64,000 nt of DNA, taken from a virus. Position 1 is the stretch's first letter, and each line of letters begins with the position of its first letter. The notes under the pieces were generated by a model. It did no database searches and was not told where the DNA came from. It was given only the letters and a program-made list of their open reading frames with translations. The position numbers and the translations under genes are program-made. The stretch covers positions 18,589 through 82,588 of IMG/VR virus record IMGVR_UViG_3300025141_015211; one strand, 5' to 3'. Shown here piece by piece: positions 23,051-57,669 of this stretch.

Positions 23051-24856
<1,806 letters not shown>

Positions 24857-37488: not shown

Positions 37489-38204
37489 GTTACATTCCTA
37501 AGTATCTGCCCTATTTTTTCTGCTTTTCTAATTCTAGACTCTATAACTTTCCAATTAAACTGCTTCATCATTGCAACTGTGTATGTTTTGGTATTATTTA
37601 GATAATCTCTATAATATGAATGCTCCCACATATCAAGTACTATGACTGGGAATACACCGATAGGCACATTATCACTATGTAAATCAATTACGCAGTTTTG
37701 ATAACTTTGCAGCCATACATTGTAAACTGTGCATGCCCAACCATTTCGACTTGACAAGCAACATGCCATGAAATCTTTCTGCCAATCATCAAATGTTCCA
37801 AAGTCTCTTGATAAGCGCATGTACGAAAGAGAGTCCATCGCAACTTCACTGTGTAGATCGCTAATATTTGCGAAATAAAGCTCATGCAAATAAGCTGCGT
37901 TAGCATTATAAGTTTCATCAATTTTGAGAGATCTAAATTTTGAATTATTTTTATTGACATCATCTCTGCTGACTGTGTCAAGTTCTGCACTAATTTTATT
38001 AAACTCTGTTACATAACCTTCGTAGAGAGCAATGTGTGCTCTCTTGTTTGAACTGCTTAAGAGTTCAGTAGGAAGATTAAAATTCTTAACTTGAGCAACA
38101 TATGACTCACTCAATTGCGAATCATTACTCTCAAGACCTAATGATTTTTTAATATTTTCTTTTATATCTTTGTTTGTGAACTCACTCATTTTATAGCCTT
38201 TCAT
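37485..38204 (-). CDS. Fe/Mn superoxide dismutase family protein (HxxLYxGY subtype) with N-terminal extension
   Basis: AHIALYEGYV, LHELYF, DMWEHSYY metal ligands. Confidence 0.85.
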   Translation of the reverse strand: MKGYKMSEFTNKDIKENIKKSLGLESNDSQLSESYVAQVKNFNLPTELLSSSNKRAHIALYEGYVTEFNKISAELDTVSRDDVNKNNSKFRSLKIDETYNANAAYLHELYFANISDLHSEVAMDSLSYMRLSRDFGTFDDWQKDFMACCLSSRNGWACTVYNVWLQSYQNCVIDLHSDNVPIGVFPVIVLDMWEHSYYRDYLNNTKTYTVAMMKQFNWKVIESRIRKAEKIGQILRNVT

Positions 38205-38509: not shown

Positions 38510-38926
38510 TTAAAGGTTAAATTTTCTAACCTCTATGCCCGCATCTTTAAGTATTTTAATTCCTGATAAGTCTCTGTACTCTACATCATAGACTACTTTA
38601 TCAATTCCTGAGTTAATCATTGCTTTTGCGCACATCTTGCAAGGACTTAGCGTGACATATAAAATCTTTTTCTTTGGATTGTTATAATCCATTTTTAATA
38701 GGCAGTTAATTTCTGCATGTAACATTCCAGATTCACCTGGCACAGCTGATTCAACTTCATTTGGGCCGCCTGAATAGTTTCCATTATAACCAACAGCTAG
38801 GACCTGTGTGTTGTCATCTGTAACAACAATTGCACCTACTTGAAATCTGGGGTCGTACGAACGTTTTGAAATAGAATGTGCAAATTCCATCCAGACTTCG
38901 GGCCAGTCAGGTCTGGATACTTCCAC
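38510..38926 (-). CDS. dCMP deaminase
   Basis: QVGA.V, GYNG, HAEIN, TLSPCKMCAK. Confidence 0.9.
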   Translation of the reverse strand: MEVSRPDWPEVWMEFAHSISKRSYDPRFQVGAIVVTDDNTQVLAVGYNGNYSGGPNEVESAVPGESGMLHAEINCLLKMDYNNPKKKILYVTLSPCKMCAKAMINSGIDKVVYDVEYRDLSGIKILKDAGIEVRKFNL

Positions 38927-39902
38927 TTGTGACCTCTTTCTGTGTTATTTCTATTGTATCTGTCACGCTTTCAATTGAAACACCGGCCTCTTGAGCCTTT
39001 TTGGCAATATTCTCAAGATCTGCCTTTATTTCTTCTACTACTTCTGGATCTGGTTCAACTTTCTCTTCTTCTAAATCAAATATGTCATCTACGCATAGTT
39101 CACCTGACATTTGAAACCCTGATGCTTTTTTATGTCCGCCGCCGCCAAAATCTTTTGCAATTTCTGATACATCAATTTTATCATGAAAAGATCTCAAACT
39201 TACCTTAATCATCCTGTCATCATGATCATAGTACCAAATTAAAGCAAAGTCACAGTCTGGCGAAAGTCTTGAGCCTATCTCAGATATCCAGTGAGATGAG
39301 TTTACAACTAGGACATCTTTACCCTTATACTTTCTAGAGACAGCTTTTTCACAAACCTTTTTAATGACTGTTTTCGAATATGCAAGTATGTAAGAGCCTC
39401 GTTTTACAGCATCGTCAAAAACTGAATCATCTTCAAATTTTTCAAACTCTTCAAATTCAAAGGGCACCATGTCAAAAGCAGCACTAAATTCTTTTGAATA
39501 GTCAAGCTCCCATTTCCAAAGATCTCGATCTTGAATATATCTAATAAACTTAGGTGGCTCTTTGCCAGGATGAAAAAACTCCCAGGACAATATTGCACCT
39601 GACTTAGTCATATCAAAAAAAGTGTTTGATATGTCGTGAAGCTCGACCATCGCTGATTTGTGATGATCAATTACAAGGAGATTGTCAGCCTCAGCTATCA
39701 TATCTTTTGTAGTTTTATTATCAAAAGAGAAATCTAAGATAACAACATTTTTGCCTTTTATCTTAGGCGGTCTTGTTCCGTGTTTGCATGCATGATATTC
39801 TGCTCTATTACCTAATAATTTCCATGCAGAATAAGCAGAGCCGAAACCATCTGTACAATCTGCATGATATATTACACAGTTTATGGAAGAAGGTTCAAGC
39901 AT
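38907..39902 (-). CDS. DHH/DHHA1 phosphoesterase
   Basis: YHADCTDG, IDHH, DRDLW, SLRS, GGGGH. Confidence 0.88.
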   Translation of the reverse strand: MLEPSSINCVIYHADCTDGFGSAYSAWKLLGNRAEYHACKHGTRPPKIKGKNVVILDFSFDNKTTKDMIAEADNLLVIDHHKSAMVELHDISNTFFDMTKSGAILSWEFFHPGKEPPKFIRYIQDRDLWKWELDYSKEFSAAFDMVPFEFEEFEKFEDDSVFDDAVKRGSYILAYSKTVIKKVCEKAVSRKYKGKDVLVVNSSHWISEIGSRLSPDCDFALIWYYDHDDRMIKVSLRSFHDKIDVSEIAKDFGGGGHKKASGFQMSGELCVDDIFDLEEEKVEPDPEVVEEIKADLENIAKKAQEAGVSIESVTDTIEITQKEVTSGSIQT

Positions 39903-40470
39903 TTTTTACGCTCACTACTACATTTGTTTCATCATGGTGGTGCCAACACCTGGGCTCATACATGTCAGACCCACCCACAGCAATCTCACTTAAGTCTTTA
40001 TTCTTCTTATATGTGTAGTACGCATCCCGCCCGCAGGTAACACAAACCGCAGGACACTTTTTAATTTTTGTTGCCCAAGGCATTAATTTTTCAATTTCTT
40101 CAAATGGTTTCAATGTCGCAGAAAGATCCAAAGAAGAAATGATTATTGTTTTTCCAGACTTAAATAAGTTTATTAGTATGTCTGCAACGCCATCTATCAT
40201 GAATGCTTCATCTATTGCAATAACGTCAACTTGTTCTGGGTAATTATTTATAAACTTCATAATATCATACCCATCTCTAATAACATGGGCATCTATTGAT
40301 CCCCCATTATGTGTAACTATCTTGCTAATTGAGTATCTATCGTCAAGCTTAGGCTTGAAAGCAATAACATTCTTGTTTTGATATCTGTATCTATCAATTG
40401 CGCCTAGAAGATTAGTAGTCTTTGACCCGAACATAGGGCCAGTAAATATAACTAGTTCAGGTGTGTTCAC
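39895..40470 (-). CDS. tdk: thymidine kinase
   Basis: GPMFGSKTT, IDEA, C..C, VGGSDMYEPRC. Confidence 0.92.
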   Translation of the reverse strand: MNTPELVIFTGPMFGSKTTNLLGAIDRYRYQNKNVIAFKPKLDDRYSISKIVTHNGGSIDAHVIRDGYDIMKFINNYPEQVDVIAIDEAFMIDGVADILINLFKSGKTIIISSLDLSATLKPFEEIEKLMPWATKIKKCPAVCVTCGRDAYYTYKKNKDLSEIAVGGSDMYEPRCWHHHDETNVVVSVKNA

Positions 40471-40918
40471 TAATAACCTCTAATAAATCTTCAATGTCTT
40501 CTGACTCACGCTCATAATCGTCTATAACCCTCACAGGTTTGTCTCCACTATGATTACCTATTTCAATAATTTCACTGTCTTCTAGTGCAATTATACGATA
40601 TGGGCAGTCTGATTGTACAAGCAATGCATCACCTGGCCCTAAGGTTTCTGTTTGTAAGGGATTTGCAACTGGGTCTGAGAATGTACACTCATTTCCAAAT
40701 AAAACCTCTACTTTTCCAATTGTCAAATAAAGAACTTCCGCCTTTAACTTATGAAACTTTAGGCTTGTTCTCTTTCCTTTTGAAACAGTCAAAATCTTTC
40801 CGTGTATACCACCGAATCCTGCCCAGACTTTTTCAGTCCCCCAAGGTTTTGTTATGATTTCATCTTTTCCACGTGTTACCCATGCAGTTTTAAGATGCTT
40901 TTTAGTCCTATACTTCAT
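40457..40918 (-). CDS. cupin (sugar-phosphate isomerase-like)
   Basis: KPWG.E, SLKFH..K.E, cupin strands. Confidence 0.75.
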   Translation of the reverse strand: MKYRTKKHLKTAWVTRGKDEIITKPWGTEKVWAGFGGIHGKILTVSKGKRTSLKFHKLKAEVLYLTIGKVEVLFGNECTFSDPVANPLQTETLGPGDALLVQSDCPYRIIALEDSEIIEIGNHSGDKPVRVIDDYERESEDIEDLLEVISEHT

Positions 40919-41912
40919 CTAGGCCCCACCACTCAATAGTGCGGTCAAGCCCATCCCAAAATTTAACAAGCGGCTCATACCCAAGATCTTCTGTTATTTT
41001 AGAAATATCTGCCTGAGTGTGCATAACATCGCCAGGTCGCCAAGGTGCATCAAGCACGACAGCATGATGAAATTTTCCTGTCAAATATTTTAAAATTTCA
41101 GCATTTGATGTTCTGTCTCCACAAGATACATTATAACATTCGCCTAAGAATCTCTTACTTGACTCTGCTGCAAGCATATTGGCATGAACAGCATTGTCAA
41201 TATAACAAAGGTCTCTTGACTGAGAGCCGTCGCCGTCGCTCCTTAGAGGTTGACAGTGTTTAATTGCATGACACCATGCTGACACTGCAGTTGAATATGG
41301 CGAATCTCCATATTGCCCAGGACCAAACACATTAAAGTATCTCAAACATACAATGTCTAAATCGTATAGTTCACCAAAAATCTTTGCCATGTCCTCTATC
41401 GCGCTTTTTTGCCAAGCATAAGGCGATTTTGGCCCTTTTTCACTAGACTCTTTAGTAGGTAATGCAGCTGTTCCACCGTAAACTGATGATGAAGATGCCC
41501 ACACAATTCTATTAACATTGTCACGACAAGCTTCAAAAAGACGAGTTGTTCTTAAAATGTTTACCTCTGTTGTTCTAGCAGGATTCTCTACTGAGTACAA
41601 AACACGTGGGATCGCTGCCTGATGAAAGACTACATCGTACTGTTTATTTTGTATTCGATCAATCACACCATCATGTGTAAAATCACCCTGCAACACAAGT
41701 AATGTATCATTAGTTCTATTATATCCTGAATCATCAAATTGATCCAGTAGATCTAACGGTACAACTCGCATATTGCAGCCTTCAAGCAATTCAAGATGTC
41801 CGTTTGACATATCATCTACTATGTCAACACACCAACCGCTGCTTAAAAGTTTTCGTGAAAGGTTTGACCCTATAAATCCACAGCCGCCTGTGACTAAAGC
41901 TCTCTTGTTCAT
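40908..41912 (-). CDS. NAD-dependent NDP-sugar epimerase/dehydratase
   Basis: VTGGCGFIGS, SSSSVYG, YAWQK, LRYFNVFGP. Confidence 0.92.
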   Translation of the reverse strand: MNKRALVTGGCGFIGSNLSRKLLSSGWCVDIVDDMSNGHLELLEGCNMRVVPLDLLDQFDDSGYNRTNDTLLVLQGDFTHDGVIDRIQNKQYDVVFHQAAIPRVLYSVENPARTTEVNILRTTRLFEACRDNVNRIVWASSSSVYGGTAALPTKESSEKGPKSPYAWQKSAIEDMAKIFGELYDLDIVCLRYFNVFGPGQYGDSPYSTAVSAWCHAIKHCQPLRSDGDGSQSRDLCYIDNAVHANMLAAESSKRFLGECYNVSCGDRTSNAEILKYLTGKFHHAVVLDAPWRPGDVMHTQADISKITEDLGYEPLVKFWDGLDRTIEWWGLDEV

Positions 41913-41931
41913 TTTTTACTCCTCTTGTATT

Positions 41932-42840
41932 CTAACTCAAAATATGAGCAGAGTTTAAGTTAAATCTCATCCTAACTGAATCTTTTAAATTGTTCAAGCC
42001 TAATGACAAAAAGACAGAAGACGCGAGATAATATAAAAATTTCAAATCATACCTGAAAGTTTCAGCAACTTCTGAAGACCTCAATACAAAATGCATGTCA
42101 AGTATATTTTCTCTGTATGATGCGTGTATTAAAGATATGCATGTATCATCTGTATAGATAAATCTTCTTGAGTAAGCTGTCTCAACACGATTGTATGGGT
42201 TCTTGCCTGCCAGTTCATTTTGTATTGTCTGTGTCAAAGCTGACAAAATCCTTTCATAGTACTCTTTTTCAGGCTCATACTCCATTACGTTAGCGTCTGC
42301 TTCTAAGAACTTGCCATCGTCATAAATTGTAAAACATAGTGGTGATGCTTCATAGCCGTTAGACGAACTTGCATAATCAAACACCATTTTTGATATCTCG
42401 TCTAAAGAAGCTGTTTCAGTTGATGCAAAGTCTTTTGCGACTTTTTTTGCAATACTATGTGTCGTGTCTCTTATAACTAAAACATTTGGTAATCTTTCTA
42501 AGCGCTCTGCGTAATTTGTAAATTCAGCATGGAGGACTTTTATATTTTCTAAACTCTGGATTTCATCGCCACGGGCTTCATAGCGTGCCTGTATCACATC
42601 AAATTCTGGCAATAATATTACCAACTTATTGTTCATGTTGAGAATTTCTCTTTTAAAATTTTCATTATGAAAAAAGTAATCACGACTGTATTGCTTGGCA
42701 TGTATTAGCATGGAAAGGCATGACCTGTCATGTATGTTCCAAGCATAAGACGTAGCTTTGTGCAACGACGAATAAAGTGTAGTCTTGCCTGATAGATCTG
42801 GCCCTTCTAATAGAATGTAATTTATTGGAAAACGTGTCAT
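41932..42840 (-). CDS. fusion of dNMP kinase and minimal thymidylate-synthase-fold (dCMP-type) domain
   Basis: EGPDLSGKTT and DRS; SRR, C, LRSS, YDL, SAHI. Confidence 0.7.
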   Translation of the reverse strand: MTRFPINYILLEGPDLSGKTTLYSSLHKATSYAWNIHDRSCLSMLIHAKQYSRDYFFHNENFKREILNMNNKLVILLPEFDVIQARYEARGDEIQSLENIKVLHAEFTNYAERLERLPNVLVIRDTTHSIAKKVAKDFASTETASLDEISKMVFDYASSSNGYEASPLCFTIYDDGKFLEADANVMEYEPEKEYYERILSALTQTIQNELAGKNPYNRVETAYSRRFIYTDDTCISLIHASYRENILDMHFVLRSSEVAETFRYDLKFLYYLASSVFLSLGLNNLKDSVRMRFNLNSAHILS

Positions 42841-42844
42841 CTTT

Positions 42845-45800
42845 CTATACTACCAAGGGTTTCATTTTTGCCCCTGAGGTGCTTGCACCCCACTGACCAT
42901 CATTCTTGACATCAGCAATCCATATTGTAAAAGGGCTTGCTTCTTTTGGCAAGAATCCCCATACCCTAAGCCAGGCTGATGCGTTTTGATCATCACAAAT
43001 TCTTAATCTATAAAATGTCTTACCTGTCTTTGTTTTCTTTTTTATAATTTCTTGTATGCAAAACCAAGCCACATCCCTTGTATCACCTGATAGTGTTGTA
43101 ACAGCAGGTATTTCTGCTCTTTCAATTTTACCAAGCACACCATCTGGATATAACAAGTCTTGCGGGACAGATGATGTTAATTCATAATACATTTCTAGCA
43201 TTTCTGACCTTGACCAATCTTGTTCTTCGAGCGTGTCTTCAATGAGCTTAGGTAGTATTAATTGTGCGCCACTTTTCAATGCTTGACGTGCAGTCATACC
43301 ATGCTGACCTTTTCTTAATTGCTCATAGTTTTCAATAATAATTTTATGTAACTGCTTATGATTTTTTATTCTGCCCATTTCAAAATCATCCAAAGAATAG
43401 AAAGCGCTAATTTTGCACAAAGAAGCAAAACAAGTTTTGTTCATTTTAGAATGTTTCCACTTGCCATTCTCGTCGTAAAGCATATCTTGCAAGCTTTTAT
43501 AAGGCCGCATTATCATGATCTCATTAACAGCATTTATACCGACACCCTTGACGGAAGATAACGGGGGTACAAATGATGATTTATCTTCTGAATAAATCCA
43601 TTCATCACCCGAATAATTGATATCAGCAGGCGCAAACTCATACCCCATTTGCTTAATTTCACCAATTGTTTTTACCATTGCCTTAGGGTTGCTATTTTCT
43701 GATTGTAGAATTGTGGCCAACCAAAGTTTTTCATGATGCGTGTGAAGCCACGCCGCATAGTAAGAGTCAATTGCATAAGCAACAGCATGTGACTTGTTAA
43801 ACCCATACACGCTGAAAAATTCAATTCTATCAAACAACTTATGTAGTGAATCCTCAGGTAGGTCATGCAATTCTTTTGCGCCTTCTACAAATTTTTTCCG
43901 AAGTTCGTCTCTCTCTGCGCCCTTTTTACCCATTGTGTCAAGAGACTTTTTAACCAACGTCTTGCGCATTTTATCAGACTCTCCTGGTGTAAAGCCTGAT
44001 AGTTTTTGTGCAAGCAGCATAAACTGCTCTTGAAAAGTGATATGACCAAATGTTGATCCCAATATCTCTTCGATTACTGGATGGTCATACTGAATACTAT
44101 TTGCATTTTTCTTATCTTTGACATATTTTTTATGAACATTCGCACGCAATGGACCAGGTCTATAAATTGCAGTTAATGCTGCAAGTTCTTCGATTGAAGT
44201 AGGCTTAGCTTCTTCACAGAAATTTCTTGCGCCTTCGGCCGTAAATTGAAACACTCCTGTCTTTCTACGCTGGTGATAAACATGCTTCCACACTTTTTCA
44301 TCATCTTGTTGATTAAACCTACAATTTAAGTGTTCATCAAAGTATTCTTTGATTTGTAAAAATGTCGGACTCGTATTGCCAGACGCTTTAAGAATACGCC
44401 TAATACAGTTCTCTACATCCTTAAGTAGTGTTAGACCTAGAAAATCAAACTTAATAAAACCGTTATCTTCCAAGTTTCTAAAGTTCATACCTTCAGTCCA
44501 GGGCGTCTGGAGCTCGCCACGAACACCTACAAGGGGCATTGTCTTTTCAAGCTCTTCAGCAGGCGCAATGATCACTCCGCCAGCATGTCGACCAATACTT
44601 CTATTTTGCATAAACAACGCTTCGATGTGATCCTTAACTTTAGGGTACTTTTCCATGAACGACTGATATCGACTAGAATGTTGCATGCAATCTTCATGCT
44701 TTAAGACAAAGACAGACTTTTCTGTATTTTCATCTCTAACACAAGGCATTACTTCATTTTGGAGTGGGCCAGTAACAGCATTAATTTCATCGAACGGTAC
44801 ATCATAGAACTTAGCAATATCTTTGACAAGTGATTTAAGTTTTAGGGTGTTAAAGTTAGACACAGGAATGACAGCGTCATCGCCATACAACTCTCTAGCT
44901 GCATCAATCAGCGCATCGCGATCACCTGCGTCAGAATCAATGTCAGGCCAAGATGTTCTGTGACGTCCCAAAAAGCGGTCCCACAGCAACCCGTACGGTA
45001 GCGGGTCGAGTTGTGTAATCCCTAGGAGGTAATTTACCAAGCTACCGCCGCCAGAACCACGTGCAGGACCGAACAGAGTCCGATCTTCAGCCTTGTGGAA
45101 GACTTGGTACATTGTCAGGAAGTAATTTTCAAAGCCTAGAAATTTAATATCTTCTAATTCGGTTTTTGCACGTGCAACATACTCCGGCTTTAAGTGTAAC
45201 TCTGATTCTACCATCCCCTTTTTTACAAGGTCGACAAGCTGATCAAATGCTGTCTTAGCAGGCGTATTAAAGTTTGGCAGTTTGACTGATTGATCGATCC
45301 ATGTGTCTTCACACATTTCCCAGGCTATATCGTGTGTACGTTCAATGGCATCACAAATCAGTTGATCTTGCCCTTTATAAAACTCATGTTTGTCGCGGTG
45401 GAGTAGATACTCATCCCACATTTGAGAAGCATTTTTAGGATACAGCTCACACTTTAGATCATCAAACTCAGGTAGCGGAGAAGGATCATTCCCCATCCAC
45501 CCGAGCTTTTTATAGAGCTCCCTTGCTTCCCACTTATCTGGACCGTAGTAGTGAGAATCAGCTGTAGCAATCAACGGCACGCCCGTTGCATTGTGAAGCT
45601 GTATTAGGTGATTGTTTACCTTATGTTGTGCTTCAAGACGATTAAATTGAAGTTCTAAAAAGAAATTTTCGACGCCGACACATGATGTGAAACGATCCGT
45701 TAAATTCTGCAATTCCCTTTGAATCTCATCATGTGGCTTATTAAGTGCCTCGCCGCGTAAAACGCGGTTTGAGTATATTCCTCCCAAGCAGGCTGTAGAT

Positions 45801-46375
45801 ACAACTAGTCCTTCGCCATGTTCTTGAAGCATTTTAAAATCAATGCGCGGGAATCGGTAAAAACCATGCTTATAAGCTTTTTTGATTAGTGTAAAAAGGT
45901 TACCTAGACCAACTCTATTTTTGGCAACTACAACTAAGTGATAGCGGCGTTTCCACTCGTCCTTTTGAACATCAATTGTTTTGGTCTCGTCTTCATTTTC
46001 AACAGTGTGACCAGCAGCAACTACATCTTCATCGGCATCAATATCTGTTCTTTCCTTTGCCTTCTTTTCAGACTTAGCATCTCTAACGGCTTGCCTGTGG
46101 GCTTCATAGTCATTGCGCCAGTCTGAAAGTGAGGGGACAAAGTAGAACTCGCAACCGTAAAGCTGGCGATATTTTCTGCCTGCCTTTTGCATCTTTTCAG
46201 CATGCTTTCGTGCATGTGCCAGGCCTGAACCATTTCCATGATCTGTTAAAGCCCACGCATCCATTTCATTCTTTAAAACAAAATCTATGTGATCAGCAGG
46301 ATATCCTAGCCCGTCGAAAACTGAAAATCCCGTATGGGCATGCAAGCCTACAAATCTATTTGGTTTAATAATCAC
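42845..46375 (-). CDS. dnaE: DNA polymerase III alpha subunit (family C)
   Basis: PHP domain (LHAHT, TDHG), RGSGGGS, PDIDSD, HAGG, KFDFLGL, YGFNKSH, C-terminal OB fold. Confidence 0.96.
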   Translation of the reverse strand: MIIKPNRFVGLHAHTGFSVFDGLGYPADHIDFVLKNEMDAWALTDHGNGSGLAHARKHAEKMQKAGRKYRQLYGCEFYFVPSLSDWRNDYEAHRQAVRDAKSEKKAKERTDIDADEDVVAAGHTVENEDETKTIDVQKDEWKRRYHLVVVAKNRVGLGNLFTLIKKAYKHGFYRFPRIDFKMLQEHGEGLVVSTACLGGIYSNRVLRGEALNKPHDEIQRELQNLTDRFTSCVGVENFFLELQFNRLEAQHKVNNHLIQLHNATGVPLIATADSHYYGPDKWEARELYKKLGWMGNDPSPLPEFDDLKCELYPKNASQMWDEYLLHRDKHEFYKGQDQLICDAIERTHDIAWEMCEDTWIDQSVKLPNFNTPAKTAFDQLVDLVKKGMVESELHLKPEYVARAKTELEDIKFLGFENYFLTMYQVFHKAEDRTLFGPARGSGGGSLVNYLLGITQLDPLPYGLLWDRFLGRHRTSWPDIDSDAGDRDALIDAARELYGDDAVIPVSNFNTLKLKSLVKDIAKFYDVPFDEINAVTGPLQNEVMPCVRDENTEKSVFVLKHEDCMQHSSRYQSFMEKYPKVKDHIEALFMQNRSIGRHAGGVIIAPAEELEKTMPLVGVRGELQTPWTEGMNFRNLEDNGFIKFDFLGLTLLKDVENCIRRILKASGNTSPTFLQIKEYFDEHLNCRFNQQDDEKVWKHVYHQRRKTGVFQFTAEGARNFCEEAKPTSIEELAALTAIYRPGPLRANVHKKYVKDKKNANSIQYDHPVIEEILGSTFGHITFQEQFMLLAQKLSGFTPGESDKMRKTLVKKSLDTMGKKGAERDELRKKFVEGAKELHDLPEDSLHKLFDRIEFFSVYGFNKSHAVAYAIDSYYAAWLHTHHEKLWLATILQSENSNPKAMVKTIGEIKQMGYEFAPADINYSGDEWIYSEDKSSFVPPLSSVKGVGINAVNEIMIMRPYKSLQDMLYDENGKWKHSKMNKTCFASLCKISAFYSLDDFEMGRIKNHKQLHKIIIENYEQLRKGQHGMTARQALKSGAQLILPKLIEDTLEEQDWSRSEMLEMYYELTSSVPQDLLYPDGVLGKIERAEIPAVTTLSGDTRDVAWFCIQEIIKKKTKTGKTFYRLRICDDQNASAWLRVWGFLPKEASPFTIWIADVKNDGQWGASTSGAKMKPLVV

Positions 46376-46398
46376 TCTTGGTCCTTGTATTTATGTTT

Positions 46399-46428
46399 AT
46401 TATATCATAAGATAGTAAAAATTACACG
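46399..46428 (-). promoter_or_regulatory. promoter CGTGTAA-N17-TATAAT of the dnaE operon
   Basis: GTGTAA 46427-46422, TATAAT 46404-46399. Confidence 0.7.
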
Positions 46429-46454
46429 TTTTCATGACAATTATCTTTAATGCA

Positions 46455-47195
46455 CTATGCGTGTCGATGATGCATTTTACTCATCACGTCTGGGTGACTT
46501 TTTATTTCATTAATAGTTTTTACAGCTGTGTCAAACCAAAACTTTGCTATAAAATTTTGTCTATGATCTGCAAAAAATATATGCTTGATTCTACTAACAG
46601 CGCCTGTTTCTAATAGTCTCCACATCAGCAGATATTCAAGGCCTTCAACATCAATTTTCAAAATATCAATGTCTTTATCAAGTTCGAAAATATATCTTGT
46701 TAAATCAACAATCGCTACCTTGTGAGTCATACCTGGATCGTGATTAAATCGACCTGAAACTTCTGAAGCATCTGTCGATATCTTAAAGGGGAGCATTGAA
46801 GCGCCACCATTATCGTCATCTGGTGAGCCCTTAAAATAAAGATGCGCCTCATCGCAGTCTGTGTGTCCAACGGCGCAATCATGGAAAATTAAGTTTTGAT
46901 AGTTTGAAAATCTTTCTTTGATTGCGTTTACATGTATAGGGTTGGGCTCAAAAGCGTGCACTTCAGCCCCCAAAGACACATAATCTGCAATCTGATCTCC
47001 GTGACAAGAACCTAAATCAAGAATTACGCTATTCTTATCAAGCTCTAAAGCGCTAATAATCTCAGAGGTTGTCATATCATAAAAACTTTGATCTAGTGAC
47101 TCATCAACAAATAATGCTATTTTATCATAGTTTTCTATTATAGCTGCGTAGTCTTCAGTATCTAATAATCTTTCTCTATGTGTGTCATGCGTCAT
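46455..47195 (-). CDS. FkbM-family SAM-dependent methyltransferase
   Basis: LDLGSCHG, AFEPNP, LKIDVEG.E. Confidence 0.88.
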   Translation of the reverse strand: MTHDTHRERLLDTEDYAAIIENYDKIALFVDESLDQSFYDMTTSEIISALELDKNSVILDLGSCHGDQIADYVSLGAEVHAFEPNPIHVNAIKERFSNYQNLIFHDCAVGHTDCDEAHLYFKGSPDDDNGGASMLPFKISTDASEVSGRFNHDPGMTHKVAIVDLTRYIFELDKDIDILKIDVEGLEYLLMWRLLETGAVSRIKHIFFADHRQNFIAKFWFDTAVKTINEIKSHPDVMSKMHHRHA

Positions 47196-47210
47196 CTAAA
47201 TAATTCTCTT

Positions 47211-48185
47211 TTAATAATATTCAGTCAAATCGATCTTCTTTTCTTTAGCATCGTTTAGGTATTTGAGTGGATTGTAATCGCCCATGGGTAAGTTTAATAA
47301 TGTTATCCAACTATTTTGTATACCACTGTCTAGTGAAATTCTGGGTGACCAACCTGAGATGTTTCTAAATTTTTCGCTTGATAAAATGTGATTGCCGAGA
47401 TAATCAGTTTCTGGGTGCCACTTAATAATTTTATTCACGTCAACGTTAACTACTTCAGATATTTTTGACACAATTTCTTGTGTGTTGTATGGATTTTCAG
47501 CAGAAACATTAAAGTCATCACACCACAGCCCTTTCGTGCACGCTAAAACAACAGCTTCACAAAAATCAACAACGTGCATGTAGTCCTTAATCTTTGTGGG
47601 ATCTAAAAACATATCTAAATCGCTCGAGTCTGTTAGGTGAGAATACAAAGTCTTAGCAATTAATGAATTCATATCACCATGACCACCGTAAGCAAAGAGA
47701 GGACGCACAATCATCCATTCATTACAGTTATGCTTAATAATCTGCTCTGCTGCAAGCTTTTGTATTCCATAGAATGTTTTAGGGTTTAACGCTGATAATT
47801 CAGTAATAGCACAATCTTGATAACTTTTTGTGTCGTATATTACTGTTGTACCTGTGTAGCAGACTGGTACGCCTACTTTGTTTGCTGCACGTGCTATTGT
47901 GTGTGTGCCCATAACATTACTTAATGTAGAAAACTCAGAGTTCAAGGCAACAACATCTGTACCTACTACAGCAGCATTGTGGATTAGCACATCAATCTTT
48001 TCAGCTGCCAATATACGTTCCCACTCTTTTTCAGAATTACCATAGACACATGGTTCTCCTGTGTCAATGCACACTAACCCTGTTTCATCACCCAGCAATG
48101 AAACGAATGTGTTGTCTGATTGTTCAATTGCCTTTGCAAGATTTGTGCCGATGAAACCTAGTTCACCTGTTATTGCAAATCTCAT
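47211..48185 (-). CDS. second NAD-dependent epimerase/dehydratase (extended SDR)
   Basis: ITGELGFIG, HNAA, YGIQK, DYMHV.D. Confidence 0.85.
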   Translation of the reverse strand: MRFAITGELGFIGTNLAKAIEQSDNTFVSLLGDETGLVCIDTGEPCVYGNSEKEWERILAAEKIDVLIHNAAVVGTDVVALNSEFSTLSNVMGTHTIARAANKVGVPVCYTGTTVIYDTKSYQDCAITELSALNPKTFYGIQKLAAEQIIKHNCNEWMIVRPLFAYGGHGDMNSLIAKTLYSHLTDSSDLDMFLDPTKIKDYMHVVDFCEAVVLACTKGLWCDDFNVSAENPYNTQEIVSKISEVVNVDVNKIIKWHPETDYLGNHILSSEKFRNISGWSPRISLDSGIQNSWITLLNLPMGDYNPLKYLNDAKEKKIDLTEYY

Positions 48186-48202
48186 ATTTTACCCTCGCAC
48201 AT

Positions 48203-48232
48203 AAAAAAACCCATGAGTAAAAATACTCATGG
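48203..48232 (-). terminator. intrinsic terminator after dnaK
   Basis: CCATGAGTA/TACTCATGG 9-bp stem followed by a T7 tract on the minus strand. Confidence 0.75.
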
Positions 48233-48254
48233 ATTTAAGATTTTACATCACAAA

Positions 48255-50153
48255 TTACGGTGATGCTTCTTCAAAGTCTGCATCAATTGTTTCAGTGCTT
48301 ACAACTGGATCAATTTCTAAATCTTGCCCTTGCTCATTTGCCTGAGCTTGCATTTGCATTTGCTGTGTAAAAATTGATACTTCAATCATTACTTTTTGAA
48401 TTTCATCAAGTGACACTTTGATCTCATCAATATTGTCGCCCAAGACTGCAGACTTTGCCCTCTCAAGTGTGGTAGATGCTAAGTCTTTAATGTGGGGTGA
48501 TAAAAAGTCATCTGCTTCTCTTGCCGCAGACTCAAGCTGATACATGTTAGAATCAAGCTCATTCTTTTTATCAATTAATGCACGCCTAGTCTCATCTTCT
48601 TCTCGATTTACTTCAGCATCTTCAATCATTTGACTAATTTCTTGTTCATCAAGGGCACCTGTGTCTTCAATCTTTATCGACTGTACTACACCTGTCGCCT
48701 TGTTCTTTGCTGAGACATTAACGATTCCATTAGCATCAATATCAAAAGTTACTTCGATTTGAGGCGCGCCTCTAGGTGCTGGGTCAATTCCTGTTAATTG
48801 AAAATTACCCAATGTTCTGTTGTCTTTAGCAAACTGTCGCTCACCTTGTAGTGCATGAATATCAACAGATTGTTGTCCATCTACAGCTGTACTAAACACT
48901 TCAGACCTACTACAAGGTATTGTTGTATTTCTTTCGATCAGGGTTGTCATAACACTACCTATAGTTTCAACACCGAGTGATAATGGTGTAACGTCAAGTA
49001 AAAGAATATCTTCAACGTCTCCTGAGAAAACACCGCCTTGGACAGCTGCACCTAGTGAAACAACTTCATCAGGATTTACAGAGTGATTTAACTTCTTTCC
49101 AAAAAACTTTTCAACTGCACTTCTCACTGCAGGAATGCGTGTTGATCCACCCACAAGGAGTACCTCATCAATATCACCTACTTTAAGCTTAGCATCATCT
49201 ATAGCCTTCTTAACAGGCGTCAGCGATGTTGCAATAAAAATCTCGACCATCTGATCAAACTTTGCACGTGTCAAGGTTATTGCAAGATGTTTGGGACCTG
49301 CTGAGTCAGCTGTCAAAAAGGGTAAATTAATATCTGTACTACTAGCAGAAGAAAGTTCAATCTTAGCTTTTTCTGCAGCATCTTTAAGACGCTGAATAAC
49401 AATATTGTCATGTCCAACATTTATGCCTGTGTCTTTTTCAAATTCTGAAACAAGCCAATCGATGATGAGCTGATCTACGTCATCACCTCCCAAATGTGTA
49501 TCACCATTTGTGCTTAAAACTTCGACTACACCATCAGAGATTTCCAAAATAGATATATCAAAAGTGCCGCCGCCGAGATCGTACACAGCAATCTTTTGTT
49601 CACCCTTTTTGTCCATACCGTAAGCAAGTGCAGCAGCAGTTGGCTCATTAATAATGCGTTTAACATCAAGCCCGGCAATTTTACCAGCGTCCTTAGTTGC
49701 TTGACGCTGAGCATCATTAAAATAAGCAGGGACTGTAATGACAGCATCAGTAATCTTAGTACCTAAATAGTCTTCAGCGCTACGCTTTAGCTTTTCAAGA
49801 ATAAGTGCACTCACTTGTTGTGGCGCATACTTCTTTTTACCTATTGCAAACTGGCATGAGCCGTCTCTTTTTCGTTTAATATCGTAAGGCATATTTTCAA
49901 CATGCTTCTTGACATCCTTAAATTTAGCACCCATAAATCGCTTTGAAGAAAATATAGTATTTTCAGGATTGACAATAGCTTGCCTCCGTGCTGTTTTCCC
50001 TACAAGGCGGGCATCATCTGGTGTAAAAGCAACAACAGATGGCGTCGTTCTGTCACCCTCTTCATTCACAATTACTTTAGGAATACCATTTTCGACTACT
50101 GCAACAGCAGAATTTGTCGTCCCTAAATCAATTCCTATTACTTTATTACTCAT
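48255..50153 (-). CDS. dnaK: Hsp70 chaperone DnaK
   Basis: GIDLGTTNS, TVPAYF, DLGGGTFD, NPDE.V. Confidence 0.97.
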   Translation of the reverse strand: MSNKVIGIDLGTTNSAVAVVENGIPKVIVNEEGDRTTPSVVAFTPDDARLVGKTARRQAIVNPENTIFSSKRFMGAKFKDVKKHVENMPYDIKRKRDGSCQFAIGKKKYAPQQVSALILEKLKRSAEDYLGTKITDAVITVPAYFNDAQRQATKDAGKIAGLDVKRIINEPTAAALAYGMDKKGEQKIAVYDLGGGTFDISILEISDGVVEVLSTNGDTHLGGDDVDQLIIDWLVSEFEKDTGINVGHDNIVIQRLKDAAEKAKIELSSASSTDINLPFLTADSAGPKHLAITLTRAKFDQMVEIFIATSLTPVKKAIDDAKLKVGDIDEVLLVGGSTRIPAVRSAVEKFFGKKLNHSVNPDEVVSLGAAVQGGVFSGDVEDILLLDVTPLSLGVETIGSVMTTLIERNTTIPCSRSEVFSTAVDGQQSVDIHALQGERQFAKDNRTLGNFQLTGIDPAPRGAPQIEVTFDIDANGIVNVSAKNKATGVVQSIKIEDTGALDEQEISQMIEDAEVNREEDETRRALIDKKNELDSNMYQLESAAREADDFLSPHIKDLASTTLERAKSAVLGDNIDEIKVSLDEIQKVMIEVSIFTQQMQMQAQANEQGQDLEIDPVVSTETIDADFEEASP

Positions 50154-50223
50154 TAATCACATCTCCTATCTGTTTTGCGTGATATGCATAAATTAAACAC
50201 AATTTTTACTAAGAAAACCCTTT

Positions 50224-51294
50224 TTAATCATTTTTTTTAATGTCTTCTCTTAGCTGTTTAAATTTTCTAATTAAACCTAGTTCATCACTAGATAAATTTG
50301 TTGGTGTCAAAACATGAATCTGAACATGAAGTGTACCTCTATGTCCAGAACCTGCACCGTTTAGCAAGCCTTTTTCTTTGAATTGAAACACACTGTGTGT
50401 TTGTGTACCTGGCGGGATTTTAACTGTAATTTTTTCATCTATACCGTCAAATTCAAGTTCATTACCTAAAATTGCAGCTTCAATCGGTATTTGCATAGCT
50501 GTATACAAATTAGATCCATCTCGGTCAAACCTGTCATTTTCTTGTAAAATAATTTGGGCGTATGCATCACCCGGTTCACCACAGTTAGGTGCAAAATGCC
50601 CTAAGCCCTGTAGTCTAATTTGATCGCCTTCCAAAACGCCGGCAGGAATATTAACAGTTACGTCTTTGATTTCAGGGCGTAGACCTTGACCAGAGCATAA
50701 ACTGCAAGGTGTAGTAATCACTTTACCAGCGCCGCCACATGTCCTACAATTTTGAACAACAGACATAAAACCAGTTTGAAATGCAACTTCCCCTGTGCCT
50801 TTGCATTGTTCACAGGTAGAGATATCACTTTCACTTTGATAACCTTTGCTATCACACGCATCACATGATAAGTTTCTCTGAAATGTTACTCTTTTTTTGC
50901 AGCCCCTCAAGGCTTCTCGAAAAGACACTTCAACGCCTATTCCAATATTACCGCCTGTTCGAGGTCTTGCACTTGCACTAGAAGACCGTTTTCTTCTACC
51001 TCCAAAAATATCAAAACCAAAACCTTGAAAAATATCAGAAAAAGAACTAAAAATATCTTCAGGCATACCTGAAAAGTCTGCAGTCCCGTACTTATCATAA
51101 TTACTTTTCTTCTCAGAATCAGACAAAACAGCATAAGCTTGAGAGATTTCTTTAAATTTCTTTTCTGCTTCTTCATCATCCGGGTTCTTGTCAGGATGAT
51201 ACTTCATTGCTAGCTTTCTGTAAGCTTTCTTTATTTCGCTATCTGATGAATTTTTAGATACACCTAATAACTCATAAAAATCATGTGATGCCAC
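50224..51294 (-). CDS. dnaJ: DnaJ chaperone
   Basis: J-domain HPD, G/F region, four CxxC repeats. Confidence 0.95.
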
Positions 51295-51309
51295 GTTTAC
51301 ACTCTAGTA

Positions 51310-51756
51310 TTATTCTATTTCTTTGTCGTAAGGTTCAAAAAGCAAGGTATCAGACTCAAAGCATCTGTCTAAATAATCTTCAAGTTGCTCGAATGTTGTA
51401 CAAACTTTAACACCACTTCTTGCAAGCATTAAGTTAAATTTTGCACCCTGGGGTAAACCTTGACAAAAGTATACGATGGGCACTTCATTCGCATATGCGT
51501 AACCGGCTTCCCAGATAGTTCCAATGTCCTTATCTCTTGTATTTACAATGAGAAAATCTGCTGTCTTGATATGGTGTAAGTTTCCATCAAATGTTGCATC
51601 TTGAGTCTCTTTAGGCGCATTTGGCGGACAGACAAAGATTCTTCGTGGTGATGCTAAGTCAATCCACGACCTGGTGTCACAAACCTCTTCAAGGCGAGTG
51701 AGTTCTTCTGCTTGTGTCGGGTTAAACCAGCCCGATGCTAGATAAATCTTTTTCAT
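51310..51756 (-). CDS. nucleoside 2-deoxyribosyltransferase / NMP glycosidase family
   Basis: IYLAS.WF, D.GT.WEAGYA, FNLML. Confidence 0.85.
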   Translation of the reverse strand: MKKIYLASGWFNPTQAEELTRLEEVCDTRSWIDLASPRRIFVCPPNAPKETQDATFDGNLHHIKTADFLIVNTRDKDIGTIWEAGYAYANEVPIVYFCQGLPQGAKFNLMLARSGVKVCTTFEQLEDYLDRCFESDTLLFEPYDKEIE

Positions 51757-51765
51757 GTTAATCTC

Positions 51766-52737
51766 CTAAAAGTTATTTTCGTATTCTGACTTAAGACCTT
51801 GAAATTCATTCATTAGATCCAGCCACATTGTTGTAAAAATCTTTTCACCCGTACCGTGCGTCCCATTTAATTCTTCACGACGACATGGGTAAATTGTGTC
51901 ATCTTCATGGTAGTCAAACGTATCATTCTTCGGCTCTGGTTGATAAAGGTTTGTACCTCTACTGATCCACTTGTCACCTTCCTTAACGCGAAAAGTATTA
52001 ATATAGTGATAATCAGGCTTGTCAAAGTTAAATACCTGCGTCAGCTCTGGAATAGCTTTACACGCTTCAATTGCCATTCGTGCAGCAAGAACATTATCAG
52101 CAGCTGGCTGAATCTGTGCATCTTGCCGCTGTCGGACAAATCCAATTAAATCTTTAAGATTAAGTCGCATATAATAAAAAGAAGTCATACACTTTGGTAG
52201 TATCATGCGTGAATCCATCATTGAGACAACTTTGGAGTCAGTCATGTCAGCATAAAGCTGCTTTGACTCAATAACTAGTCTAGTATACCTTTCTAGAAAC
52301 TCAGGTGAGTTCTGAACAGATTCTGGCACAACAACAGGATCATCTCTTAAGTCTCTGTCTCCCGTACATTGTGCAGCAAAAGACCCGGCTCTGTGCCTAA
52401 TAATATGAGTTACTTCCTGAAACGAAAGACCCGAAAGCCTAAATGTAAATCCTAGACATTCCATCGGGGTAGGCAATGCTCGAAACTGGAGCACATCAAG
52501 CAGATTCTTACTCTTTACACTGACGCTTGCGCTTGCAGGATTAACTTCATTTGGATCATCAGCCCATGTTGCCTTTACATAATGCCACGCAACATTTCTA
52601 GCCTGATCTGTTGTGGGCGCATCAACAAGCTCGACCTTAAGTGCTTTAAGGTTGTTAAGAAAAGTTGTATTAGGTTGTTGATCAAATTTAAGATCCATGG
52701 GCAAAGTGATAGGGTCTAAATTATTATTCAGTGGCAT
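51766..52737 (-). CDS. divergent flavin-dependent thymidylate synthase (ThyX-like)
   Basis: F.LSG.S...THIIRHRAGSF; DSRMILP; NLK.L..F...R; motif Ser replaced by Cys. Confidence 0.7.
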   Translation of the reverse strand: MPLNNNLDPITLPMDLKFDQQPNTTFLNNLKALKVELVDAPTTDQARNVAWHYVKATWADDPNEVNPASASVSVKSKNLLDVLQFRALPTPMECLGFTFRLSGLSFQEVTHIIRHRAGSFAAQCTGDRDLRDDPVVVPESVQNSPEFLERYTRLVIESKQLYADMTDSKVVSMMDSRMILPKCMTSFYYMRLNLKDLIGFVRQRQDAQIQPAADNVLAARMAIEACKAIPELTQVFNFDKPDYHYINTFRVKEGDKWISRGTNLYQPEPKNDTFDYHEDDTIYPCRREELNGTHGTGEKIFTTMWLDLMNEFQGLKSEYENNF

Positions 52738-52779
52738 GTTTATTAGTCTCTCTTTCGTGGGTAGGTGAATAACAGTATA

Positions 52780-53718
52780 TCATAAAGAAGAAATGTTTTT
52801 AATACAAGAAATTAATTCTTTAGCATTTTTATACATTGTTACATTTTCAAGATCAGAAAGTTCTGTGTTGTAAGATTTGCAAGGTACACATGTCTTTACA
52901 CTGTGTTTAGCATACTCTGCTGAATGTTTTGCAGAGTCATCAATAGCACACACAATTTTCTCATTAGTGTAGTAATCAGTTTTTGTCAACCATCGGTATT
53001 TTTCAGGACTGAAGTCTACACGATGATATTTTAGGCCTGATTTTTTAAGCCATTGAAAAGTATCATATTTACATACAAGTGAATCATCTGGTCTTGCTGT
53101 AAGAATTTGTATCCAGTAACCCTCATCATGTAATTTATTTACAGCTTCAATAATTTCTTTATCTGGTTTGATATTTCTTAATTGTCGATTTGCAACAAAT
53201 TCTTCAAATACAGCCTCAGGGTTTAGCCCTGCTTCTTTTACCTCTGCTGTTGTATAATATTCTGTTGAATTTATATCTGCATCGATATCATGTGTGAGTT
53301 TAAGCCAATTTATAAATGTTTCCCTAAACTCACAAATTACATCATCTAAATCAAATATTAACACTGGTTGACCAGTCCACTTTACAGACTCCATCTGATG
53401 TCTGGTGTGTAAAAATAAATCTTTATCATCAAATGCAGAGATGAACTGTTCTGATCTTACATCCCAAAGATTTAGTATTGCAAGGAGGTAGCGAAATACG
53501 TCAATTGACTCGTACAGTATCTTCTCTTTATCTATTTGAGAACGAGACTGACGGTGATCTTTAAAATTAATTGCACTAATTAACTCAGAAACTTCTGTGT
53601 GCAACGCTAACGTCAAAGATTTAGTGATTTCTTCTTTTTCCAAATCTGCCAGATCGCCTGAATCAAAAAATAGTTTATTAAAATCACTCTGACATCTAAA
53701 CATGTCTTCAAGCGTCAT
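52780..53718 (-). CDS. MazG/dimeric dUTPase-like domain fused to a HAD 5'(3')-deoxyribonucleotidase
   Basis: EVSEL...ESID; FDLDDVI, ILTAR, IDD. Confidence 0.78.
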   Translation of the reverse strand: MTLEDMFRCQSDFNKLFFDSGDLADLEKEEITKSLTLALHTEVSELISAINFKDHRQSRSQIDKEKILYESIDVFRYLLAILNLWDVRSEQFISAFDDKDLFLHTRHQMESVKWTGQPVLIFDLDDVICEFRETFINWLKLTHDIDADINSTEYYTTAEVKEAGLNPEAVFEEFVANRQLRNIKPDKEIIEAVNKLHDEGYWIQILTARPDDSLVCKYDTFQWLKKSGLKYHRVDFSPEKYRWLTKTDYYTNEKIVCAIDDSAKHSAEYAKHSVKTCVPCKSYNTELSDLENVTMYKNAKELISCIKNISSL

Positions 53719-53941
53719 CTTTACTCTCAGGTAAATAATTCATAGCAGCTAAAACCTTAGCAAGATCGTGTCCGCCTACATGAAGCGATGCTTTGTTTCC
53801 TGGTGAAAAAATTTGCGCATGATACCGCTTAACGTCTAAAACGCTCAATGCTTTCTGCGTTTTTTTGTCAAACTTTTTAGGGATTTCAATTTCAAGATGT
53901 GAAAACACTAATTTGTATGTGTCATCAGTAGCCATTATCAA
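53708..53941 (-). CDS. hypothetical protein
   Basis: 77 aa ORF in operon. Confidence 0.5.
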   Translation of the reverse strand: MIMATDDTYKLVFSHLEIEIPKKFDKKTQKALSVLDVKRYHAQIFSPGNKASLHVGGHDLAKVLAAMNYLPESKDDA

Positions 53942-54299
53942 TTCTCTCCCGTATTACAAAATCCTTATCTTCATAAGCTTGAAATAGATCGTCTGCAGAA
54001 AATCCAGTTAATACTAAAACTGACAAAAAATAATTGAAAGCATCGACAACTTCTTCAAGAAATAAATCTGTATTAAATTCACTTACCTCTGTCATCCGAT
54101 GGGGCTTCCAATTCTTAAGATGTTGTAAAGCTTCAAACATCTCTTCGACGCCTCGCAGTGCCATGTCTCTAACATGCTGCTGAGAACTTTTATCAAGTAG
54201 GTCTATGGGCCAAGTCGGAGAAGCACCTTCTGGGTTTGCCTCCTTAAGCCTTAGCATAAAAGACTCTCTCAACTCAAACATTTTATCAAGCTTATCCAT
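53925..54299 (-). CDS. dimeric dUTPase/dCTPase (all-alpha NTP-PPase)
   Basis: EEMFEA...NWKPH...EEVVD; ends RI..GY. Confidence 0.8.
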   Translation of the reverse strand: MDKLDKMFELRESFMLRLKEANPEGASPTWPIDLLDKSSQQHVRDMALRGVEEMFEALQHLKNWKPHRMTEVSEFNTDLFLEEVVDAFNYFLSVLVLTGFSADDLFQAYEDKDFVIRERIDNGY

Positions 54300-55758: not shown

Positions 55759-55788
55759 ATTATACTACGCTTCACGCGTATTTACACG
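55759..55788 (-). promoter_or_regulatory. promoter CGTGTAA-N17-TATAAT
   Basis: GTGTAA 55787-55782, TATAAT 55764-55759. Confidence 0.7.
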
Positions 55789-57639: not shown

Positions 57640-57669
57640 ATTATACCACACTCTTTATGCGATTACACG
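57640..57669 (-). promoter_or_regulatory. promoter CGTGTAA-N17-TATAAT (leaderless)
   Basis: GTGTAA 57668-57663, TATAAT 57645-57640, ATG 6 nt downstream. Confidence 0.7.

Follow-up and report, generated by a model that had tools for sequence, protein, structure and literature searches.

A fused nucleotide kinase and minimal thymidylate synthase-like domain beside dnaE in an uncultured marine jumbo phage: a possible route to modified cytosine

Does the set of nucleotide genes around a phage dnaE supply ordinary DNA precursors, or does it produce a modified cytosine that is copied into the phage genome? This question is raised by a stretch of 64,000 nucleotides (the window; bases 18589-82588 of the 82,588-base IMG/VR virus record IMGVR_UViG_3300025141_015211), in which positions 38510-54299 form a block of nucleotide genes tied to replication in an uncultured marine jumbo phage. 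The part of the block that bears most directly on the question is a gene at 41932-42840 (minus strand) for a protein of 302 amino acids, in which a nucleotide kinase resembling YorR and thymidylate kinase (YorR/TMK-like; residues ~1-150) is fused to a minimal domain with the fold of thymidylate synthase (TS; residues ~160-302). Our analysis puts the probability that cytosine is modified at C5 before replication, in the manner of T4, at about one half.

The initial annotation had described this gene as a kinase/TS-fold fusion, a call on which Pfam is silent and which the predicted structure confirms for both folds. The AlphaFold2 (AF2) model comprises two domains, with a predicted local distance difference test score (pLDDT) of 93.8 and a predicted template modelling score (pTM) of 0.90. 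In structure comparisons the kinase part (residues 7-149) matched SPbeta YorR with Z 13.4 and deoxynucleoside kinases and thymidylate kinases with Z 11-12; profile searches reached YorR at E 5.6e-7 and phrog_761, 'thymidylate kinase', at 2.4e-9, and the P-loop, DR motif, lid arginines and kinase fold of the TMK/YorR-like enzymes are all present. Residues 144-302 have the TS alpha/beta fold, with about 140 residues aligned at a root-mean-square deviation (rmsd) of about 3 Å. Their top VIA match was the CMP hydroxymethylase MilA (Z 12.2, 142 residues aligned, rmsd 3.0), and they also matched the dCMP 5-hydroxylase of phage HY126 (9iqu; Z 12.1, 144 aligned), L. casei TS (Z 11.1) and other thymidylate synthases (Z about 11). 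The top Foldseek matches were 9iqu, 9iqc and T4 dCMP hydroxymethylase, and Acinetobacter phage gp42 ranked first in the viral library. By sequence alone, a PDB search with a profile of 34 C-terminal domains reached T4 dCMP hydroxymethylase (E 0.0018), and among PHROG families only phrog_160 matched the TS-like domain, weakly (E 0.0045).

Relatives of the window are numerous. We confirmed 115 IMG/VR stretches that encode the fusion and kept the best 80 for counts; these loci were chosen because they encode the fusion, and their other genes were identified by tblastn (E ≤ 1e-5) in flanks of 10 kb, so that all neighbour counts are lower bounds, since the flanks end there. Conservation was counted over 81 sequences, namely the window and the 80 loci, with some positions lacking a residue in one sequence. 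The fusion sequences are just 33-59% identical, and a set of residues is nevertheless invariant across them. Within the TS part these are C234 and R225 (81/81) and R254, S255, D265 and H299 (each 80/80 of the sequences with a residue at the position), the conserved elements being C234, R225/R226, R254-S255, D265 and H299. Within the kinase, K19, D38, R39, R86, R90, G91 and D92 are each found in 81/81, forming the motifs EGPDxxGKT (EGPDxxGK[TS] in the family P-loop), DR and RGD.

The positions of these residues are those expected of a TS-superfamily enzyme. Cys234 aligns in the profile with the Cys of the FMC motif of T4 dCMP hydroxymethylase, which we take to be the catalytic Cys148, and the family motif RS-x-[D/E/N]-V aligns with RSNDV of the same protein; C234, R254-S255 and the S-R-R triplet (224-226) fall on the corresponding sites of both T4 dCMP hydroxymethylase and 9iqu, and all are invariant or almost so in the 81 sequences. 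The catalytic Cys (C146 in E. coli), the phosphate-binding pair R166/S167 and the RR pair of the superfamily are thus all represented. D265 aligns with the T4 residue that is Asn in PDB 6l18 (titled D179N), so that the position of E. coli N177 is occupied by Asp in 80/80 of the sequences with a residue there, and two further acidic residues, D231-D232, sit just ahead of Cys234. In PMC13326640, enzymes with Asp at N177 prefer dCMP, non-methyl products accompany an acidic residue at L143, and Asn at D169 occurs in all tested 5-hydroxy-dCMP (5hodCMP) synthases. The domain therefore appears to be of the dCMP-selecting type; because the Asp is invariant, uracil, which the initial annotation had offered as an alternative to cytosine, is disfavoured as the target.

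The fusion has a constant place beside the replicative polymerase. The dnaE gene (42845-46375, minus strand), for a family C DNA polymerase of 1176 amino acids with PHP, DNA_pol3_alpha, finger and HHH_6 domains, adjoins the fusion on its upstream side in 80/80 loci and in the window ends with a stop codon 4 nt ahead of the fusion start codon. Within the 10-kb flanks we also found thymidine kinase (TK; 67/80), dCMP deaminase (66/80), a DHH phosphoesterase (52/80), a nucleoside 2-deoxyribosyltransferase (NDT; 51/80), a ThyX-like protein (38/80), a MazG-HAD fusion (28/80) and a second MazG-type enzyme (MazG2; 26/80), together with two short-chain dehydrogenase/reductases, SDR1 (56/80, in each case directly beside the fusion) and SDR2 (36/80), a cupin (22/80) and a superoxide dismutase (SOD)-like gene (58/80). 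This arrangement around the fusion is not the product of chance. In the window, dnaE, the fusion, SDR1, cupin, TK, DHH and deaminase form a string of seven co-directional genes with gaps of 4 and 19 nt and overlaps of 8-20 nt, the longest of which joins the deaminase gene to the DHH gene. The dnaE start is preceded, at a distance of 23 nt, by a putative promoter, CGTGTAA-N17-TATAAT (46399-46428, minus strand), and the genes from dnaE to the deaminase may therefore be one transcription unit. Chance alone would give 0.17 copies of the motif CGTGTA(A/T)-N17-TATAAT in the window; there are five, all of them exact in a search that allowed up to one mismatch. The other four are at 5663-5692 (plus strand) and at 21650-21679, 55759-55788 and 57640-57669 (minus strand).

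The fusion family extends well beyond these loci. Marine data from Tara, ENA, JGI and NCBI contain 482 clusters (90% identity) that match the fusion, mostly of 295-315 amino acids. A search of 1.84 billion proteins with the domain profile gave 407 representatives at E ≤ 1e-3. These include stand-alone proteins of 166-186 amino acids that share the motifs Cys, RSSD, LP.D and GSAHI, and the eight examined (P0232, P0235, P0240, P0246, P0250, P0258, P0263 and P0270) belong to no Pfam family; since the stand-alone versions keep the motifs, the reduced TS core is a family in its own right beyond the kinase fusions. In the ESM Atlas the domain is closest to small viral clusters, of whose members only 12-17% carry PF00303. 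Among 50,697 phage records, tblastn gave no match for the whole fusion, for its kinase half or for P0235, and only weak partial matches (E 4e-3), to Bacteroides phage ThyA genes, for P0258. The fusion family is thus uncharacterised, with no Pfam family and no cultured phage. Our literature search likewise found no description of a kinase-TS fusion, of the window's lineage or of Geobacillus phage GR1, the nine IMG/VR TS homologs tested in PMC13326640 lying outside the comparison. We regard the kinase-minimal TS fusion family as a notable and new variation on the known TS-homolog route to modified cytosine, in a block that is otherwise the standard nucleotide kit of DnaE phages, with chaperone and sugar genes scattered through it.

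The lineage is represented by a fragment. The record has a CheckV completeness of 28%, and DNA of the window was detected in marine metagenomes, all 17 runs listed being marine, estuary or seawater. IMG/VR contigs of related phages reach 202-284 kb, on which ground the record is assigned to an uncultured marine jumbo phage. A megablast search of the 50,697 phage records found no near-identical DNA in cultured phages.

From the folds, the invariant residues and the gene order, we infer the following for catalysis, substrate, product and cofactor, and for all that happens downstream of the fusion enzyme. In the minimal TS-like domain, the Asp that is invariant at the N177 position would bind dCMP, the equally invariant Cys would attack C6, and a substituent, most likely hydroxymethyl or hydroxyl, would be installed at C5. 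The fused YorR/TMK-like kinase, working on the same pool, would convert the product to the diphosphate or supply dCMP, after which a host nucleoside diphosphate kinase and the phage DnaE would place the C5-modified cytosine in phage DNA. As in T4 (gp56, gp42, gp1, cd, td), dCTP and dUTP would be kept low by the MazG-type enzymes, and dTTP synthesis would be fed by the deaminase and ThyX. The greater part of the block serves salvage and dTTP supply, with a DHH phosphoesterase that would free mononucleotides from oligonucleotides, a deoxyribosyltransferase and TK, the dCMP deaminase and ThyX, the nucleoside triphosphate (NTP) pyrophosphatases and a nucleotidase. According to bioRxiv 10.1101/2024.12.05.627091, 104 of 149 dCMP deaminase genes (70%) on contigs predicted to be modified are found within 3 kb of a TS gene, compared with 17 of 277 (6.1%) on canonical contigs. 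The window fits this pattern with a gap of 3,006 bases between deaminase and fusion, just beyond that limit.

The enzymes that this scheme assigns to precursor supply were identified as follows. All 16 reading frames in 38510-54299 lie on the minus strand and all but one match named families, the exception being an open reading frame (ORF) of 77 amino acids (53708-53941) for which no match was found. The genes listed by the initial annotation are all present in their places and orientation, with families matched by Pfam, PHROG, NCBIfam or structure. The dCMP/cytidine deaminase (38510-38926, 138 aa; PF00383, E 2.3e-22) is followed in coordinate order by a DHH/DHHA1 phosphoesterase of the NrnA/RecJ-like type (38907-39902, 331 aa; phrog_4771, 4.2e-75; DHHA1, 1.5e-8; DHH, 1.7e-4) and by a TK1-type thymidine kinase (39895-40470, 191 aa; PF00265, E 4e-40). 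No DnaE of a cultured phage shares more than about 30% identity with that of the window. The nucleotide block is interrupted by the chaperone genes dnaK (48255-50153; Hsp70, 2.8e-242) and dnaJ (50224-51294; three DnaJ domains), which are rare in the relatives (DnaK 5/80, DnaJ 12/80 within the flanks); a strong terminator-like hairpin of 13 pairs and a T run, recognised by consensus match alone, follows dnaK at 48207-48236 on the minus strand. A GroEL-type chaperonin is also encoded in the window (23051-24670, minus strand).

The genes that the initial annotation had placed beyond the chaperones, namely an NDT-type enzyme, a divergent ThyX, a MazG-HAD fusion and a dimeric dNTPase, were each confirmed by matches. 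The NDT-family protein (51310-51756, 148 aa; PF05014, 5.8e-14) matches the N-deoxyribosyltransferase 6evs over its full length at 7e-9 and keeps the D..GT.WE.G motif. The ThyX-like flavin thymidylate synthase (51766-52737, 323 aa; Thy1, 2.6e-17) scores 63.7 bits against the Thy1 cut-off of 24.8 and 36.6 bits against the NCBIfam thyX cut-off of 87.9, the latter shortfall making 'divergent' a fair description. Its RHR motif is kept, and the Arg residues of its SRMILP and VRQRQD segments align with T. maritima ThyX at what we take to be the dUMP-binding R147 and R174, so that a Thy1 score above the cut-off, the RHR motif and Arg at the presumed dUMP-binding sites together place it in the ThyX family. 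It has Cys at the motif Ser, as does its best PDB match, 3g4c, wild-type chains having Ser, and it carries N- and C-terminal extensions (323 vs 232 aa). Its sole cultured-phage relative is the 'FAD-dependent thymidylate synthase' of Geobacillus phage GR1, 44% identical over the full length (L098, 12001-12969), and it probably makes dTMP.

Two proteins are candidates for removing a canonical dNTP. One is a fusion of an N-terminal NTP pyrophosphatase of the MazG/dimeric-dUTPase type and a C-terminal HAD phosphatase of the NT5C/PNK-phosphatase type (52780-53718, 312 aa; dUTPase_2, 3.9e-6, residues 3-105; NT5C, 5.2e-5, residues 118-304; phrog_173, phrog_415 and phrog_2643). The other is a small all-alpha NTP pyrophosphatase of the dimeric dUTPase/MazG type (53925-54299, 124 aa; dUTPase_2, 9.4e-5; phrog_12184, 'nucleotide pyrophosphohydrolase', 2.2e-14), whose identity to Mycobacterium and Gordonia phage proteins with the annotation 'dUTPase' is 31-34%. 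Two dUTPase_2/MazG-type domains are thus candidates for a dCTPase role, their nearest cultured relatives being annotated as dUTPase. Residues 172-245 of the MazG-HAD protein also match PDB 9iqw, 'Capsule biosynthesis protein' (E 7.1e-5), a code that adjoins the HY126 entries 9iqu and 9iqc.

Next to the deaminase gene, as in 58/80 loci, lies the SOD-like gene (37485-38204, minus strand), whose product of 239 amino acids matched one domain alone, the C-terminal Fe/Mn superoxide dismutase domain (E 1.1e-17). Its proximity could be explained, speculatively, by a use of flavin and O2 in the TS-like domain. Ten small or unannotated neighbouring ORFs yielded nothing useful other than one metallophosphoesterase.

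The modified cytosine proposed by the initial annotation is therefore upheld in part: a TS fold with a dCMP-type Asp, fused to a kinase beside dnaE, two MazG-type NTPases and a deaminase speak for it, and most of the other genes turn out to be ordinary companions of DnaE. Several observations weigh against it. PF00303 matched neither the fusion nor its C-terminal domain, nor anything in five related virus records, and the TS-like domain has about 140 residues, compared with 217-264 in its characterised relatives. Judged by this length, it lacks the part of ThyA that carries W80/W83/Y94 and the C-terminal tail that closes over folate, in ThyA numbering and with a role for the tail that we assume here. 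A folate-dependent reaction is doubtful, because the domain is short, the folate segments are apparently gone and PF00303 is silent. Deoxynucleoside kinases and dNMP kinases score alike as structural matches to the fused kinase, which could therefore be of the former type. At the D169 position the window fusion has Glu (E257) in place of the diagnostic Asn, and in the family as a whole the position is N in 35, D in 30 and E in 15 sequences, having changed at least 10 times along the tree. The residue differs even between sisters such as L020 and L040; we considered reading the product from it and rejected this, because N, D and E interchange among close relatives and show no clear link with neighbouring genes.

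The surrounding genes weigh in the same direction. Components other than the TS-like domain occur in SPbeta (kinase, DHH, DnaE, NT5C), in GR1 (DHH, NDT, ThyX-like, DnaE, TK) and in mycobacteriophages (the small NTPase), none of which is known to have modified bases. Because the same genes accompany DnaE in SPbeta and GR1, most of the block is the normal escort of a phage DnaE and says little on base modification.

The best-surviving alternative takes up these points: the DNA would be canonical, the block a salvage and dTTP kit, the TS-like half a degenerate nucleotide-binding or dimerisation module that tunes the kinase, and the SDRs, cupin and FkbM methyltransferase would serve host-surface or virion glycans. 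The shared DnaE companions of SPbeta and GR1 are what this account predicts, as are the loss of roughly half of a normal TS and the silence of PF00303; the block also harbours, among its nucleotide genes, DnaK/DnaJ, the SOD-like gene and FkbM, which implies that its gene order mixes unrelated functions, and glycosyltransferase genes in two relatives (G002 and G003) form separate clusters far from the dnaE block. The conserved residues fit it less well, since a module that serves binding or dimerisation alone would need no nucleophilic Cys, phosphate-binding Arg and Ser sites, specificity Asp or His, all of which are kept in 81/81 or 80/80 sequences at the low identities given above, and the stand-alone versions, of 165-186 amino acids, keep the same motifs. 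We regard this account as possible, with a likelihood clearly below that of a modified cytosine.

A second alternative concerns sugar. The C5-modified cytosine (or uracil) might be glycosylated on the DNA, with NDP-sugars tailored by SDR1, cupin, SDR2 and FkbM and with the glycosyltransferase encoded elsewhere in the genome. SDR1 (40908-41912, minus strand, 334 aa; PF01370, 4.4e-46) is an extended SDR of the UDP-hexose/HexNAc 4-epimerase type, its best solved relatives being 10ke, a capsular polysaccharide biosynthesis protein (E 4.1e-47), and the 4-epimerases WbgU and WbpP (1e-46 to 1e-40); it has SSSSVYG in the alignment and lacks the Asp-Glu pair that marks 4,6-dehydratases. SDR2 (47211-48185, minus strand, 324 aa; PF01370, 2.2e-23; RmlD_sub_bind, 1.7e-20) is an extended SDR of RmlD/reductase-like type, with a weak likeness to RmlB and RmlD structures, GTTVIYD at the site aligned with STDEVYG, and no Asp-Glu pair. 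The small cupin (40457-40918, minus strand, 153 aa) matches phrog_7851 at 1.1e-17 and is silent in Pfam and NCBIfam. The initial annotation had named it correctly, as its predicted structure confirms (AF2 pLDDT 86.2; Foldseek probability 1.0 to many cupins, including the Thermococcus phosphomannose isomerase 7zvy, TMt 0.80, and KdgF); an attempt to name its specific type failed, as the PDB sequence search gave no more than a chance-level match and the structure is that of a generic cupin. The FkbM-family methyltransferase (46455-47195, minus strand, 246 aa; PF05050 Methyltransf_21, 6.3e-10; TIGR01444, 6.6e-13) was found in 0/80 related loci and is thus an accessory of the window's phage.

The position of SDR1 beside the fusion in 56/80 loci, and of SDR1 and cupin inside the dnaE gene string, would be consistent with such a role. 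In a phage metagenome study (bioRxiv 10.1101/2023.12.21.572611), sugar epimerases paired with DNA glycosyltransferases proved necessary for the glycosylation of 5-hydroxymethylcytosine (5hmC), and known 5-hydroxycytosine (5hoC) systems carry sugar-activation genes of their own, according to PMC13326640. The initial annotation had seen no glycosyltransferase in the window, and model searches of the whole record were equally empty. Five genomes were examined for sugar genes: the window's own record (G000, 28% complete), its closest long relative (G001, 87%), G002, G003 and G004 (70%). Models for GT2 (PF00535), GT1 (PF00534), Glyco_trans_1_4 (PF13692) and NTP_transferase found no glycosyltransferase or sugar nucleotidyltransferase in G000, G001 or G004, which is weak evidence because few families were covered and the record is 28% complete; in G002 and G003, several GT1/GT2 genes are clustered, separated by over 100 kb from the dnaE genes (L081-L096; the records behind L022 and L043). 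The cupin, SDR2 and FkbM are inconstant partners of the fusion, at 22/80, 36/80 and 0/80. The possible glycosylation suggested by the initial annotation thus has no glycosyltransferase behind it in G000, G001 or G004, the sugar link is unsupported, and we think glycosylation on the DNA unlikely. An ORF of 379 amino acids (55791-56930, minus strand) was considered as a hidden glycosyltransferase and set aside after no match in Pfam, PHROG, PDB sequences or the ESM Atlas. This ORF sits behind one copy of the promoter-like motif.

A bolder form of the modified-cytosine proposal would have the fused kinase replace the missing half of the TS, yielding an undescribed C5 modification of cytosine, possibly sugar-decorated through the neighbouring epimerase and cupin, so that a whole abundant lineage of DnaE-replicating ocean jumbo phages would have non-canonical cytosine; this also we hold to be improbable. 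MilA acts together with MilB, and a comparable MilA/MilB- or BcmA/BcmB-like pair of TS-like domain and NDT protein, making a free modified pyrimidine base or nucleoside as antimetabolite or signal, would accord with MilA as top VIA match (Z 12.2) and the NDT-family gene in 51/80 loci, but is very improbable given that the NDT protein matches true nucleoside deoxyribosyltransferases, with no nucleotide N-glycosidase match at E ≤ 0.1, and that the kinase fusion and its constant place beside the DNA polymerase point to dNTP supply.

Were the fusion active in the modification of dCMP, a widespread ocean jumbo-phage group (482 clusters, contigs to 284 kb) would replace its cytosine before replication. 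This would bear on phage escape from restriction and CRISPR as well as on virome recovery and base-calling, and a family C polymerase would be shown able to copy modified-cytosine DNA. An active fusion would also contain the smallest known catalyst of the thymidylate synthase type and would bear on how the TS superfamily switched between folate and flavin chemistry, a question raised in PMC13326640. An inactive fusion would leave the block as no more than an ordinary kit for nucleotide supply.

Comparison with known systems places the block between several of them. SPbeta has yorK (RecJ/DHH), yorL (DnaE), yorR (TMK-like) and yorS (NT5C, 5'-3' deoxyribonucleotidase) together, and all have counterparts in the dnaE block of the window. 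The block of Geobacillus phage GR1 shares DHH, NDT, ThyX-like, PHP/DnaE, dUTPase and TK genes with the window and differs in having a glycosyltransferase among its genes; it also includes an HD protein, an amidoligase and a gamma-glutamylcyclotransferase. In neither phage did the whole fusion, including the TS-like domain, give a tblastn match.

Like the block in the window, the hydroxymethylcytosine pathway of T4 (gp56 dCTPase/dUTPase, gp42 dCMP hydroxymethylase, gp1 dNMP kinase, cd, td and tk) comprises a TS-fold enzyme that has Asp at N177 and a nucleotide kinase, together with all-alpha NTP pyrophosphatases and enzymes for dCMP deamination, thymidylate synthesis and thymidine phosphorylation. 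In contrast to T4, the window kinase is YorR/TMK-like, not gp1-like, and is fused to the TS-like domain, which has about 140 amino acids against 246 in T4; the window synthase is of the ThyX type, the polymerase belongs to family C, and no DNA glucosyltransferase was found for the window phage.

The 5hodCMP synthases (RB69 gp48, DLP3 gp80 and HY126 AfhB; 9iqu and 9iqc), described in PMC13326640 as flavin-dependent TS homologs, are the best Foldseek matches of the window protein and align with its TS-like domain at Z 12.1; they also have in common with this domain the dCMP-type Asp and the acidic residues that immediately precede the catalytic Cys. They differ from it at the diagnostic D169-position Asn, which is Glu in the window and N, D or E in the family, and sequence alignment with AfhB gives the window domain about 60 fewer residues ahead of the SRR motif. 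A TMK-like kinase gene lies near the synthase gene in RB69 and RL38J1, where the 'nucleotide kinase' genes RB69p045 and RL38J1_214 are found near the 5hodCMP synthase genes RB69p048 and RL38J1_216. The window fusion, in which kinase and TS-like domain form one protein, is this RB69/RL38J1 kinase-synthase pairing in joined form.

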